This document shows, piece by piece, positions 2,894 through 29,705 of a stretch of 35,184 bases of DNA; position 1 is the first letter of the stretch, and each line of letters opens with the position of its first letter. The position numbers were made by a program, and so were the translations under genes. Source of the DNA: an uncultured Ignavibacteriaceae bacterium (lineage in GTDB: Bacteria; Bacteroidota; Ignavibacteria; UBA10030). Where the stretch lies: positions 16,923-52,106 of the forward strand of contig CAYXMK010000001.1 of the NCBI GenBank assembly GCA_964465905.1, in the 5' to 3' direction. The notes beneath the pieces are model-generated. The model saw only the letters and a program-made list of their open reading frames with translations, made no database searches and had not been told where the DNA came from.

Positions 2894-4021
2894 ATGGCGA
2901 TCGAGATACGCCCGGTGAGTTCACACCGCGACTTGAAGCGGTTCGTGCGGTTCCCCTTCACCCTCTACCGGGGAAATCCCTACTGGGTCCCTCCGTTGAT
3001 CTCCGACGAGCTGAACACGCTCCGTACGGACAGGAATCCCGCGTTCGAACACTGCACGGCGAAGTATTGGCTTGCGTACGACGGTCGTGAGATCGTCGGG
3101 CGCATCGCCGGCATCATCAACCGGAAGTTCATCGAGCGGTGGAAGCGGAACTACGCCCGTTTTTCCTGGATCGATTTTGTTGACAGTCCGGAGGTTGCCG
3201 CAGCGCTGTATGGTGCGGTCGAGCACTGGGCCCGTTCGGAAGGAATGGAAGCGGTGCACGGTCCGCTGGGCTTCACCGACATGGACCGCGAGGGAATGCT
3301 GGTGGAGGGCTTCAATGAGCTGGGGACTATGGCCACAAGCTACAACTACCCGTACTATCCCCTCCACACGGAACTGCTGGGATACACCAAGGAAGCGGAC
3401 TGGTTGGAGTATGAGATTAAGGTGCCCGCGGAAATACCCGAGAAGGCCCTGAAGATCGCGGAGCTCACCCTTGAGCGCCGCAGACTGCACGTGCTCGAGG
3501 CCAGGAAGGCAAAGGATTTTCTTCCGTACGCGCGCGGGATTTTCGACGTCATCAATGAAACGTACAAGGACCTCCACGGCTTCGTGCACCTTTCCGAGAA
3601 GCAGGTCGATCTGTACGTGAAGCAGTACATCCCGAACGTCGTTCCCGACTACGTGAAGGTTATTCTCGACGAACAGGACAGAGTTGCGGGGTTTGTCATC
3701 GCCATGCCTTCCCTCTCGCGGGCACTCCAGAAGGCACGGGGTCGACTCTTTCCGTTCGGGTTCATCCACCTCCTCCTGGCGCTGCGCCGACCGAAGTACC
3801 TCGACCTGTACCTTGGAGCTGTTCGCCCCGACTTGCAGGGGAAGGGAGCCGACGCTCTGCTGATCACCGAGCTGGCACGATCGTGCATCAAGAACGGTAT
3901 CGTCTCTGCCGAATCCAACCTGGAGCTGGAGACCAACGTGCTGGTGCAGGGGCACTGGAAGTACTTCGAGCGGAGACAACACAAGCGGCGGCGGTGTTAC
4001 ATCAAACATTTGACTCCGTGA
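2894..4021 (+). CDS. GNAT-fold N-acyltransferase-like protein (about 375-aa family)
   Basis: The frame is open from TTG 2816, and I chose ATG 2894 (MAIEIRPVSSHRDLKRFVRFPFTLYRGNPYWVPPLI...). The N-terminus and the motifs ARFSWIDFVD and HGPLGFTDMDREGMLVEGF match my memory of a conserved GNAT-annotated family in Bacteroidota-like genomes. Confidence 0.65.
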   Translation: MAIEIRPVSSHRDLKRFVRFPFTLYRGNPYWVPPLISDELNTLRTDRNPAFEHCTAKYWLAYDGREIVGRIAGIINRKFIERWKRNYARFSWIDFVDSPEVAAALYGAVEHWARSEGMEAVHGPLGFTDMDREGMLVEGFNELGTMATSYNYPYYPLHTELLGYTKEADWLEYEIKVPAEIPEKALKIAELTLERRRLHVLEARKAKDFLPYARGIFDVINETYKDLHGFVHLSEKQVDLYVKQYIPNVVPDYVKVILDEQDRVAGFVIAMPSLSRALQKARGRLFPFGFIHLLLALRRPKYLDLYLGAVRPDLQGKGADALLITELARSCIKNGIVSAESNLELETNVLVQGHWKYFERRQHKRRRCYIKHLTP

Positions 4022-27390: not shown

Positions 27391-27626
27391 GCTGTCCGAT
27401 CTTCCGGGAGGCCTTTCACGCTTCGACAGATCAAACCACCGGGCGATGATATCCGGCGTTTCCGCATTTGTCGGTCCCTGCCAGGTGGGGAACCGCCGCC
27501 GGCGCAGCGACCCGGGCCGGAGCACCTACCGACGGAACATGGTGTCCCCGGTGATAGCGTCCTGCAGCGGAACGCCCGACGGGAGGGGTTGCCTTGACGT
27601 ATTCTTTTTTGTATCATCTCTTTGTC

Positions 27627-27704
27627 ATGAAACCGATGCAACAGCGGACGCAGGTGTCTTTGTGGTGGTGGCGCTGGTTCAAGCCGGCGTTCCCGTCGCC
27701 CTAG
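27627..27704 (+). CDS. candidate Trp leader peptide (25 aa, MKPMQQRTQVSLWWWRWFKPAFPSP)
   Basis: The ORF runs from ATG 27627 to TAG 27702-27704 and is too short for the ORF track. Four TGG codons fall within five consecutive codons (27663-27677). It is followed by alternative hairpins and terminators just upstream of trpB2. No clear Shine-Dalgarno sequence is present. Confidence 0.6.
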   Translation: MKPMQQRTQVSLWWWRWFKPAFPSP

Positions 27705-27727
27705 ACGTCTGTCTTGATGTGCCCAGT

Positions 27728-27769
27728 ACGGTGGGAATGCTGATCGGAGCGTTCCCACTGTTTGTTTTG
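27728..27769 (+). terminator. attenuator hairpin B:C with U-rich tail (terminator-like 1)
   Basis: A 13-bp stem (27728-27740 with 27749-27761, including 2 G-U pairs) has an 8-nt loop and runs into TTTGTTTTG (27761-27769). Confidence 0.5.
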
Positions 27770-27777
27770 CACACGCG

Positions 27778-27812
27778 AAATCGTGGGATCCTCCGCCCAC
27801 GATTTTTCTTTG
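27778..27812 (+). terminator. attenuator hairpin D:E with U-run (terminator-like 2)
   Basis: AAATCGTGGG (27778-27787) pairs with CCCACGATTT (27796-27805) to give a 10-bp stem with an 8-nt loop. It runs into TTTTTCTTTG (27803-27812), 44 nt before the trpB2 ATG. Confidence 0.6.
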
Positions 27813-27855
27813 TACCCACACTCATCCATCACATCACCTTTGGAGGAATACCGTC

Positions 27856-29220
27856 ATGAATCCACGACGCATCCTGCTCGAAGAACGCGAGATGCCCACG
27901 GCATATTACAACATTCTGCCGGATCTTCCGCGGCCGCTGGACCCGCCCCTGCATCCCGGAACCGGCCAGCCGATCGGGCCGCAGGATCTGGAAGCAATCT
28001 TCCCGCTTGAGCTTATCCGCCAGGAGGTCAGTACCGAGCGCTTCATCGACATTCCCGAGGAGGTGCAGGAGGTGTACCGCCTCTACCGTCCCACGCCGTT
28101 GATCCGGGCGCTCAATCTCGAGCGCGTCCTCGATACCCCCGCCGAAATCTACTACAAGTACGAAGGCGTCAGCCCGGCCGGCAGTCACAAACCGAACACA
28201 GCTATTCCGCAGGCGTTCTACAACAAGCAGGCAGGGAAGAAGCGGTTGACGACCGAAACCGGAGCCGGGCAGTGGGGAAGTTCGCTGGCGTTCGCCTGCA
28301 ACCGGTTCGGGCTGGAATGCAAGGTGTACATGGTGCGCATCAGTTATGAGCAGAAGCCTTACCGGCGTTCCATGATCCGGGCCTGGGGGGGAGAGGTTGT
28401 CGCAAGTCCCAGCCGCGACACGGCGGCCGGGCGCGCCGTTCTCGAACAGGATCCGCTTTCGCCGGGGAGTCTCGGCATTGCCATCAGTGAGGCAGTGGAG
28501 GATGCGGTCAAGCGGGACGACACGAATTATTCCCTCGGCAGCGTGCTGAACCACGTGCTGCTGCACCAGACCATCATCGGACAGGAGGCCAAGACACAGC
28601 TCGAGAAGGTCGACCGGTTTCCGGATCTTATTATCGGTTGTGTCGGAGGCGGGTCCAACTTCGGCGGCATCGCCCTTCCCTTTGTTCACGACAAGATCAA
28701 GGGGACGCAAATCCGCTGTATCGCCGTCGAGCCGTCTGCCTGTCCTTCATTAACCAGGGGCGAGTTCCGGTATGACTTCGGCGACACAGCAATGTTGACC
28801 CCGCTGATGCCGATGCACACGCTCGGACACGCCTTTCTTCCTCCCTCGATCCACGCCGGCGGGCTCCGATACCACGGCATGGCGCCGATCATCAGTCGGC
28901 TGTACCTCGACAAGCTGATCGAGGCACGCGCGTACGGCCAGCTGGATGTGTTCGAAGCAGCGGTGCTGTTCGCGCGCGCCGAAGGGATCATCCCAGCGCC
29001 CGAGCCGGCTCACGCCATCAAGGCAGTAATCGACGAGGCCCGACAGGCGAAAGCGGAAGGGAAGAAGAAGGTGATCCTCTTCAACCTGTGCGGACACGGG
29101 CATTTCGACATGGGAGCCTACGATGCCTACTTCGCCGGAAAACTGGAGAACACGGAGATTCCGCAGGAAGCCGTCCGGCAGTCTCTGGCCGAACTCAAGA
29201 CACTTCCGGTTCCGGCCTGA
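27856..29220 (+). CDS. trpB2: TrpB2-type tryptophan synthase beta-like PLP enzyme (stand-alone)
   Basis: 454 aa with GGAGGA 8 nt upstream. It has the long TrpB2-specific N-terminus ([34 protein letters not shown]) and the PLP-lysine region [24 protein letters not shown]. Further motifs are [13 protein letters not shown] and [11 protein letters not shown]. No trpA or other trp genes are adjacent. Confidence 0.9.
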
Positions 29221-29230
29221 CCAAGCACCG

Positions 29231-29271
29231 CTCCCCGGCCGCGGGCGCCTGCCGCCCCGCGGCCGGGGGAG
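29231..29271. repeat. GC-rich inverted repeat (hairpin without U-tract) downstream of trpB2
   Basis: CTCCCCGGCCGCGGG (29231-29245) pairs with CCCGCGGCCGGGG-G-AG (29256-29271). The stem is about 15 bp with one bulged G and a 10-nt loop. No T-run follows. Confidence 0.5.
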
Positions 29272-29345
29272 CAGATTGCCTCGGCCGGCGAATTCCCTTA
29301 TCTTGAACACCGCTCTTCTGCGTTCCCATCATCCCCGGAGAATCT

Positions 29346-29705
29346 ATGACCAGCAAGCTCGACGAGTTTCGGTTGTATCGGACACGCATGAACGACCGGA
29401 TTGCACAGATCGATCATCTCGGCATCAAGCGCTTTTTCAACCTGGACGGAGCGGCGTACAGGGACGGGGCGCTGGACGGCAGGACCAAGGAGCTTCTCGG
29501 CCTCGTCGCCTCGGCTGTCCTTCGTTGCAACGATTGTATCGACTACCACCTGATTCAGTGCGTGGAGGCGGGGTGGAAGGATGAGGAACTGTACGACGCT
29601 CTGAACGTTGCGCTGATCGTCGGCGGCAGCATCGTGATTCCGCACCTGCGTCACGCGGTGGAAACGATCGACACGCTGAGAAAAGAACAGGCCGGCGGCG
29701 CCTGA
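29346..29705 (+). CDS. carboxymuconolactone decarboxylase (AhpD-like) family protein
   Basis: 119 aa with GGAG upstream. The motifs LDGRTKELLGLVASAVLRCNDCIDYHL include a CxxC within the typical CMD helix pair. Confidence 0.75.
   Translation: MTSKLDEFRLYRTRMNDRIAQIDHLGIKRFFNLDGAAYRDGALDGRTKELLGLVASAVLRCNDCIDYHLIQCVEAGWKDEELYDALNVALIVGGSIVIPHLRHAVETIDTLRKEQAGGA

Follow-up and report, generated by a model that had tools for sequence, protein, structure and literature searches.

The trpB2 locus and its leader ORF

We analyzed a 35,184-nucleotide stretch of DNA from an uncultured Ignavibacteriaceae bacterium (contig CAYXMK010000001.1; the whole stretch is called the window below), in which trpB2, a gene for a stand-alone TrpB2 enzyme, is preceded by a promoter, a short open reading frame (ORF) with a run of tryptophan codons and two hairpins with U-runs. 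On the in silico evidence presented here, we consider it very likely that the monocistronic trpB2 is controlled through this leader by ribosome-mediated (leader-peptide) transcription attenuation in response to charged tRNA-Trp. The promoter, the upstream ORF (uORF) and the gene lie as follows.

27589 to 27617, + strand: sigma-70-like promoter from a promoter scan, with a -35 element TTGCCT (27589-27594), a 17-bp spacer and a -10 element TATCAT (27612-27617)
27627 to 27704, + strand: leader ORF MKPMQQRTQVSLWWWRWFKPAFPSP, 25 codons plus TAG, with ATG at 27627 and TAG at 27702-27704
27662 to 27678, + strand: segment 1, the Trp-codon run, with TGG at 27663-27671 and 27675-27677; the putative sensing site, which also pairs with segment A
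27842 to 27846, + strand: Shine-Dalgarno (SD) sequence GGAGG of trpB2, 9 nt before the ATG
27856 to 29220, + strand: trpB2, 454 aa, a TrpB2-type TrpB-like pyridoxal phosphate enzyme (NCBIfam NF009057, TIGR01415)

The trpB2 product matched NF009057 with 735.8 bits (cutoff 366) and TIGR01415 with 641 bits, compared to 157 bits for the trpB model TIGR00263, whose cutoff is 392. Its nearest PDB chains were the archaeal TrpB2-type proteins 6hul, 4qys and 6hte (E 1e-113 to 1e-137), of which 4qys is a TrpB2 structure, compared to 1e-33 for TrpB1. A previous reading of the DNA from its letters (the sequence-only reading) had proposed a stand-alone TrpB2 as the target, in a genome bearing a type IX secretion system (T9SS). 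The family and PDB matches favour TrpB2, we found no other trp genes in the 35-kb window, and two proteins of the window carry T9SS sorting domains.

The leader ORF places a short, co-oriented ORF with four TGG in five codons upstream of trpB2, as in leader-peptide attenuators. The sequence-only reading had described it as a 25-codon ORF (ATG 27627, TAG 27702) with four TGG among five codons and no obvious SD. We recovered the ORF and its Trp codons at those coordinates, and the missing SD was upheld and is accounted for by the promoter, since the -10 element (27612-27617) lies only 9 nt upstream of the ATG. This spacing puts the inferred transcription start so close to the ATG that the 5' untranslated region (5' UTR) of the leader mRNA is probably very short or absent (a leaderless mRNA).

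The Trp-run sequence TGGTGGTGG is expected 0.26 times per window. A second copy at 63-71 on the minus strand was considered as a Trp leader and rejected, as it has no Trp frame with a start codon; it is antisense to the 5' UTR of a + strand gene starting at 87. We judged this copy to be due to chance, as 3 of 100 shuffles hold at least two copies.

Alternative helices and tandem terminators

The segments of the leader that can pair with one another are given below.

27685 to 27698, + strand: segment A, CGGCGUUCCCGUCG, located at the uORF 3' end; can pair either with segment 1 or with B and would be masked by a ribosome at the stop codon
27728 to 27742, + strand: segment B, ACGGUGGGAAUGCUG; pairs with A (antiterminator) or C (terminator 1)
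27745 to 27768, + strand: segments C and C' with U-run 1; C is 27748-27761, C' (CGGAGCGUUCCCAC) is 27745-27758 and the U-run (TTTGTTTT) is 27761-27768
27777 to 27795, + strand: segments D and D'; D (GAAAUCGUGGG, 27777-27787) is the 5' arm of terminator 2 and D' (GUGGGAUCCUCCG, 27783-27795) pairs with C'
27796 to 27811, + strand: segment E with U-run 2; E (CCCACGAUUUU, 27796-27806) is the 3' arm of terminator 2 and the U-run (TTTTTCTTT) is 27803-27811

The A:B helix has 14 bp (27685-27698 with 27729-27742), B:C 14 bp (27728-27741 with 27748-27761), D:E 11 bp (27777-27787 with 27796-27806) and C:D 6 bp (27753-27758 with 27783-27788). The C:D helix is prolonged by pairing of CGGAG (27745-27749) with CUCCG (27791-27795), generating C':D'. 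A terminator scan scored the hairpins at 27728-27768 and 27777-27811 as terminator-like, each with its U-run; two intrinsic terminators therefore stand between the uORF and the gene. Folding of 27620-27860 without constraints produced three hairpins (27650-27712, B:C at 27728-27761 and D:E at 27777-27806), and this fold was more stable than all 200 shuffled sequences (z -3.7; 0/200). The first of the three is a strong hairpin within the uORF in which the Trp codons are paired with segment A; its minimum free energy (MFE) pairs are 27662-27668 with 27693-27699 and 27670-27678 with 27683-27691 (segment 1:A). The duplex energies were about -22 kcal/mol for 1:A, -22 for A:B, -25 for B:C, -20.0 for C':D' and -17.2 for D:E.

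Most of what the sequence-only reading had drawn by eye was found by these programs. The scan called both of the tandem terminator-like hairpins with U-runs that it had placed before trpB2, and the octamer GCGTTCCC, with which A and C were both said to begin, was found at 27687 and 27749. All of its helices exist, but A:B, B:C and D:E are 14, 14 and 11 bp long, not 12, 13 and 10 bp, with C:D unchanged at 6 bp. Its five segments are all present, and the pairing of the Trp-codon segment with A makes them six. Its remark that C:D is weaker than D:E applies to the 6-bp helix as drawn but not to the extended C':D', which is more stable than D:E. A third copy of GCGTTCCC at 29320 was considered and set aside as within chance (5 found compared to 2.1 expected).

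We also carried out the Rfam scan that the sequence-only reading had proposed. With gathering thresholds, the whole window gave no match to RF00513 (Trp_leader), to the T-box or to any other family, and the leader region at E values up to 10 gave only spurious matches to tfoR and CRISPR-DR29. The tfoR match at 27725-27811 (15.4 bits compared to a gathering score of 70, E 0.44) was rejected as a family match; this weak match arises only because tfoR, too, is built from two hairpins in tandem that run into a U-run.

Conservation of the leader in close relatives

Protein-based scans of JGI metagenomes and of a genome set with a single representative of each species yielded 160 TrpB2 loci, and exact-protein look-ups yielded 15 further loci from close relatives. 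The close relatives are uncultured metagenome-assembled genomes (MAGs) with TrpB2 identities of 72-83%, in records labelled Bacteroidota, Ignavibacteriaceae or Ignavibacteriales. The layout of promoter, uORF, hairpins and trpB2 was present in all of the close relatives with readable upstream DNA (17/17), and the alignment of ortholog upstream regions, which the sequence-only reading had suggested, accordingly revealed a W-run ORF in every one, together with compensatory changes in A:B, B:C and D:E. Carriers of the W-run uORF include L001, L003, L005, L081, L082, L161, L162 and L167-L175. In the 17 family members and in L086, a more distant locus described below, the promoter reads TTGACA or TTGCAT, 17 bp and TAnnnT, and the start codon mostly lies 5-12 nt past the -10 element. 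The SD of trpB2 is also kept as GGAG(G). The neighbouring genes vary from locus to locus among these relatives, which indicates that the leader travels with trpB2.

In an unbiased set of TrpB2 loci, uORFs with a W cluster occurred within 450 nt upstream of the gene in 17 of 150 loci in the sense orientation and in 1 of 150 in antisense; the background elsewhere in those loci was 0.014 per 450 nt. A covariance model (CM) built from 16 relatives with the window left out (R1) matched the window at 27660-27769 with 76.8 bits (E 6.6e-19), and its only other match in the window was to the palindromic hairpin on the opposite strand.

The leader ORFs of the relatives have 22-29 codons and a WWW(R/L)(W/R) core. 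The distance from the first W to the stop is 11-13 codons, and the distance from the stop to segment B is likewise conserved. The N-termini are variable, and the peptide is conserved only in the W-run and in the residues encoded by segment A, such that the C-terminal ..SPP of the leader peptides reflects the coding of an RNA segment. The ORF and its codon run are therefore kept in orthologous loci with the remaining peptide free to vary.

These patterns bear on the possibility that the UGG repeats are an RNA motif and not codons, as part of an RNA-only or protein-dependent switch (a TRAP-like site or a T-box-like tRNA sensor), or that the leader encodes an arrest peptide of the TnaC kind, through which free Trp would be sensed and the gene induced. 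The repeat UGGUGGUGG is indeed also structural, as it pairs with A, and the Pro-rich ends of the leader peptides (SPP, FPSP) could slow termination. However, the SPP residues are accounted for by the covarying segment A, the leader lacks a (G/U)AG repeat array, and neither a T-box nor another Rfam family was matched even at the permissive E value. It is the ORF frame, the start codon and the stop position that are conserved, not the N-terminal amino acids, and the geometry is that of codon-starvation sensing, with A exposed when the ribosome stalls at W and covered when it is at the stop. We therefore regard an RNA-motif or arrest-peptide switch as very unlikely.

Some of the relatives show local peculiarities. 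L002, a relative with 80% identity, has a masked run of N at about 3736-3835 where the uORF is expected, from just past the -35 element to the start of segment A; its segments A-E and trpB2 are present and conserved. L172 (2260-2500) and L175 (2330-2500) carry an insert of about 250-300 nt that separates terminator 2 from trpB2, and the L175 insert holds a long perfect inverted repeat (CAGTATGGACAGAATCC...GGATTCTGTCCATACTG) that is possibly a small mobile or REP-like element. Directly past the trpB2 stop of the window there is a 16-bp GC-rich hairpin with no U-run (29230-29271, CUCCCCGGCCGCGGG...CCCGCGGCCGGGGGAG), followed by a CMD/AhpD-like gene at 29346-29705; a CMD gene also adjoins trpB2 in L167 (1857-2219).

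Covariation of the helices

We used two gapless alignments anchored by hand (A3 and A4) and a CM-based alignment (A6); the MAFFT alignments A1 and A2 misaligned segment C and were therefore not used for B:C. In the hand-anchored alignments of the family, pairing in A:B stood at 79%, and 7 of its pairs had changed at both bases. The helix had a covariation score of 0.276 (range 0.25-0.28), compared to 0.204 for shuffles (0/500) and 0.05-0.11 for slid controls. The A:B covariation was reproduced on the CM alignment, which was fitted to B:C rather than A:B, and RNAalifold predicted A:B de novo from a plain MAFFT alignment. The covarying sets of A and B include GCUG/CAGC, GCCAG/CUGGC, GCCGG/CCGGC, ACC/GGU and ACCUC/GAGGU. 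Some of the covarying bases of B sit within the B:C hairpin loop or close to it, and the covariation of these loop-side bases with A can be explained only by an A:B interaction. The leader thus contains an alternative helix that uses the 5' arm of a terminator and is backed by covariation.

The terminator helices were also supported: pairing stood at 92-93% in B:C and at 95.5% in D:E (14 relatives), and compensated pairs numbered 3-6 in B:C and 2 in D:E. L086 carries a triple change (A CCCGCC, B GGCGGG, C CCCGCC). The D:E helix is missing or degenerate in L082, L171, L173 and L174, and the first hairpin of L170 has no U-run, such that terminator 2 alone can terminate there. For the extended helix, CGGAG in C' and CUCC in the D:E loop co-occur or are both missing across the family; L172 and L175 have neither motif but have extra pairs of their own. 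Asymmetric conservation of the arms (D compared to E; B compared to A and C) was considered as a sign of dual partners and rejected, as it follows from the chemistry of G/U-rich arms, which tolerate only wobble changes on the side of the partner.

The covariation of A:B also speaks to the possibility that the uORF is an independent Trp-rich micropeptide gene with its own tandem terminators, and that trpB2 is transcribed from a separate promoter with no attenuation. Strong tandem terminators do follow the ORF, and the 250-300 nt between terminator 2 and trpB2 in L172 and L175 leave room for a promoter. In the window, however, only 44 nt separate the second U-run from the trpB2 ATG, and the scan found no promoter-like site there. 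An ordinary terminator has no need of a covarying A:B, the peptide is unconserved outside the W-run and the residues encoded by segment A, and the unit is always found with trpB2, or with a serK-like gene and trpB2, in neighbourhoods that otherwise differ. A separate micropeptide gene is, in our judgment, extremely improbable.

Ribosome-dependent folding of the leader

We folded the nascent window RNA stepwise with a 30-nt ribosome footprint. With the ribosome on the Trp codons, A:B was the MFE structure when the RNA extended to the end of B, and A:B together with C':D' was the MFE structure when it extended to the end of D' (-53.0 compared to -51.5). With the ribosome at the stop or absent, A was masked or held in 1:A, and B:C and D:E then formed. 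When the RNA extended to the end of E, C':D' (-53.4) and D:E (-52.5) were nearly equal given A:B, and the probability of D:E in the window was 0.20 with A:B enforced compared to 1.0 with B:C enforced. By geometry and thermodynamics, the position of the ribosome decides the fold, provided that kinetic trapping is assumed; with that assumption the constrained folding reproduced the logic of the sequence-only reading, in which A is freed by a stall and masked once the ribosome is at the stop. The alternative helices, which that reading needed to be competitive, were the MFE structure at the ends of B and D', and the terminator folds were favoured at the ends of C and E.

The latter result is one of several that weigh against the attenuator reading. 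With the ribosome on the Trp codons, B:C was ahead by 5.7 kcal/mol when the RNA extended to the end of C, and the double-terminator fold was ahead by 7.6 kcal/mol when it extended to the end of E. Once C has been transcribed, thermodynamics thus favours B:C over A:B, which means that the switch has to work kinetically, as it does in E. coli. The equilibrium folds of full-length leaders with a ribosome mask also retained the terminators in most relatives, so that thermodynamics alone is no proof of a switch; since classical attenuators are kinetic, the equilibrium folds do not refute the model. Enforcing A:B suppressed terminator 2 in the window and in 5-6 relatives, but not in 7 others. The C:D helix showed no covariation, having an invariant 5-bp core (CCCAC:GUGGG) across the family, which puts C:D as drawn in the sequence-only reading beyond covariation testing, and the advantage of cognate over non-cognate C':D' was modest (p 0.015). 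Alignments A3 and A4 depend on anchoring by hand, the controls for covariation leave some phylogenetic non-independence in place, and initiation is taken to be leaderless, the uORF having no SD.

Part of this evidence would suit an arrangement in which only terminator 1 is regulated, by a classical four-segment switch (1:A, A:B, B:C), with D:E escaping regulation as a back-up or leaky terminator that may have arisen by tandem duplication of the first hairpin, and C:D as a by-product of the shared GUGGG/CCCAC core. A tandem duplication of the hairpin yields C:D complementarity automatically, and such an arrangement agrees with the lack of C:D covariation, with the loss of D:E in four relatives and with a D:E probability of about 1 despite enforced A:B in 7 of 14 relatives. 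On the other hand, a constitutive terminator would cut expression with no regulatory gain, and in L170 only D:E can terminate. The extended C':D' of the window is as stable as D:E, its CGGAG and CUCC motifs occur or vanish jointly, the cognate C':D' pairs are better than non-cognate ones, and the strong C:D (9-10 bp) of the Desulfobacterota-type leaders described below is the MFE structure of the stalled state. We therefore consider regulation of terminator 1 alone rather unlikely.

Weighing these points, we conclude from the in silico evidence that the element is genuine and belongs, as a member not described before, to the leader-peptide attenuators. There is good in silico support for control of terminator 1 through the Trp-codon uORF. 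Control of terminator 2 through C':D' is plausible and no stronger, because C:D does not covary and its extended form rivals D:E in the window but in only half or so of the relatives; a relay that reaches both terminator 2 and the trpB2 SD is likewise plausible.

Complementarity of the second hairpin to the trpB2 Shine-Dalgarno sequence

The loop of hairpin 2 and the D' region (CCUCC and its flanks) are complementary to the SD region of trpB2. The complementarity reaches past CCUCC:GGAGG in a sequence-specific manner, as in L170 (GGUACCUCCU:AGGAGGUACC) and L082 (ACUCCAGU:ACUGGAGU), and across the family cognate D'-SD pairs were better than non-cognate pairs (permutation p 0.0009). The pairing is modest in the window (UCCUCC:GGAGGA, -13.7 kcal/mol, rank 7/18). 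Relatives that lack terminator 2 retain the anti-SD sequence. We put forward masking of the SD as a hypothetical third regulatory layer.

Proposed mechanism

In the attenuator that we favour, transcription would start a few bases before the uORF ATG, and a ribosome would translate the 25-codon leader as RNA polymerase advances. When Trp is replete, the ribosome would reach the TAG and cover A; when there is no translation, A would be held by the Trp-codon segment. In either case B:C (terminator 1, U-run 27761-27768) and D:E (terminator 2, U-run 27803-27811) would form and transcription would stop before trpB2. When Trp-tRNA is scarce, the ribosome would stall on the WWW codons, hide segment 1 and free A, which could pair with B once B emerges and so bar C from terminator 1. 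The freed C' (CGGAG...UCCCAC) could then pair with D' (GUGGGA..CUCCG), compete with terminator 2 and keep CCUCC off the trpB2 SD, and the polymerase would read through, allowing trpB2 to be expressed. We infer, in this scheme, the transcription start, the stalling of the ribosome, the kinetic trapping of A:B, the control of terminator 2 and the SD by C':D', and the direction of the response in vivo.

Wider distribution and serine-kinase operons

W-run uORFs upstream of trpB2 were also found in Desulfobacteraceae and other deltaproteobacterial MAGs, in a Caldithrix MAG and in several unassigned contigs. The Desulfobacterota-type leaders (L015, L028, L034, L046, L103, L105 and L107) lie about 100-200 nt upstream of trpB2; they have an SD, a TTG, GTG or ATG start and ..(C/F/V)WWW(Q/R).. 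peptides, and most have two tandem U-run hairpins, with GGAGG in the loop of hairpin 1 and CUCC in the 3' arm of hairpin 2. In L028, L034 and L107 a strong C:D helix (9-10 bp; CCCAUGGC:GCCAUGGG) was the MFE structure with the ribosome on the W codons. The leader of the Caldithrix MAG has a simple three-segment design. R1 matched the deltaproteobacterial leaders weakly (E 3e-4 to 0.07) and two Eisenbacteria-like loci well, L086 (E 1e-8) and L006 (E 4e-6).

In these two loci (L006, 2901-3974; L086, 1193-2229) a leader uORF with WW and two tandem U-run hairpins is followed by a gene of 288 aa and then by trpB2. The 288-aa product is a homologue of S. aureus SbnI, an O-phospho-L-serine synthase (PDB 5uje, E 4e-14), and is also homologous to an archaeal free serine kinase (PDB 5x0b, E 1e-3). 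SbnI or serine-kinase homologues adjoin trpB2 in two Chloroflexota-type loci as well (L027 and L037). This gene order suggests that the supply of O-phosphoserine may be coupled to TrpB2. Busch and co-workers are said to have reported in 2014 that TrpB2 enzymes prefer O-phosphoserine. Our literature search found no paper joining a serine kinase or SbnI homologue with TrpB2.

The distribution raises the possibility, which we offer tentatively and as something short of an even chance, of an old multi-phylum 'domino' attenuator dedicated to TrpB2. One stalled ribosome, often on a leaderless uORF, would flip six segments (the Trp codons, A, B, C', D', then E or the SD), disarming both terminators and unmasking the ribosome-binding site. 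Together with the Eisenbacteria-like serine-kinase operons, TrpB2 would then be an O-phosphoserine-dependent indole-salvage enzyme that is induced in vivo by Trp starvation.

Comparison with known leaders

The closest classical counterpart is the trp leader of E. coli and Salmonella (trpL, RF00513). It shares with the window element a short ORF with consecutive Trp codons, a Trp-codon segment that pairs with the next segment (1:2 there, 1:A here), and an antiterminator (2:3) that rivals a U-run intrinsic terminator (3:4) and is favoured by a stalled ribosome, the terminator being thermodynamically favoured and the choice kinetic. The two have no sequence or CM similarity. The window element has 3+1 Trp codons and a segment A that lies inside the ORF, ahead of its stop; in place of the single terminator of E. 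coli there are two U-run hairpins in tandem. Its uORF starts 9 nt past the -10 element with no SD, and its target is a single stand-alone trpB2 and not trpEDCBA. The host belongs to a Bacteroidota/Ignavibacteria-like lineage. Vitreschak and co-workers reportedly predicted some attenuators in Bacteroidetes/Chlorobi in 2004.

In the his leader of Salmonella and E. coli, more than four alternately complementary segments (A:B, C:D, E:F compared to B:C, D:E) relay the position of the ribosome. This system shares with the window element a multi-helix chain that relays one ribosome position, but only its last helix is known to be a terminator, whereas here B:C and D:E both have U-runs and the chain may reach the SD. 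The TRAP and T-box systems of Firmicutes and TnaC also control Trp metabolism at the nascent leader transcript; the window element differs from these in that it lacks a repeat array for protein binding, a tRNA-binding T-box fold (no Rfam match) and a Rho-dependent design.

Outside the Proteobacteria, Trp-codon attenuators with trp leader peptides are predicted or known in the actinobacteria Corynebacterium and Streptomyces (Seliverstov et al. 2005, PMC1262725). These share with the window element a non-proteobacterial host and complementary triples conserved between antiterminator and terminator, but belong to another sequence family and phylum and have other targets (trpE or trp operons, trpS2); the 'trpB2A' of PMC1262725 is a second operon copy that is not shown to be a TrpB2-type enzyme. 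Leaderless polycysteine (Cys-rich) uORF attenuators are described in mycobacteria (bioRxiv 10.1101/834739), in which a short ORF rich in codons of the sensed amino acid, at or near the 5' end of the transcript, similarly senses the amino-acid supply for downstream genes; the codons there are Cys codons, the phylum is different and tandem intrinsic terminators are not known from that system. Naville and Gautheret (2010) wrote that no leader peptides had been known outside Proteobacteria and Actinobacteria until their own his case in Firmicutes. We found no paper in our literature search that ties a TrpB2-type gene to a leader peptide.

Implications

The uORF is an unannotated small ORF of the kind that genome annotation pipelines miss. 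The element that it belongs to combines a classical mechanism with a new lineage, a new and biologically informative target and an unusual tandem-terminator layout, and it would carry leader-peptide attenuation, familiar chiefly from Proteobacteria and Actinobacteria, into Bacteroidota/Ignavibacteria-like, Desulfobacterota, Calditrichota and Eisenbacteria-like lineages. The tandem terminators and the anti-SD sequence would, if the proposal is true, make an instructive multi-layer switch.

The physiological role of the stand-alone TrpB2 is disputed, with indole salvage and O-phosphoserine-dependent Trp synthesis as the proposed functions. The TrpB2 of B. thetaiotaomicron rescues an E. coli trpA mutant via indole salvage (PMC11535334), which is consistent with a role of TrpB2 in Trp supply. 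The pairing of TrpB2 with a putative Trp-codon sensor is seen in several phyla, and one lineage adds a serine-kinase homologue to the operon. A conserved sensor of charged tRNA-Trp in front of trpB2 would be direct regulatory evidence that TrpB2 is used for tryptophan synthesis under scarcity.

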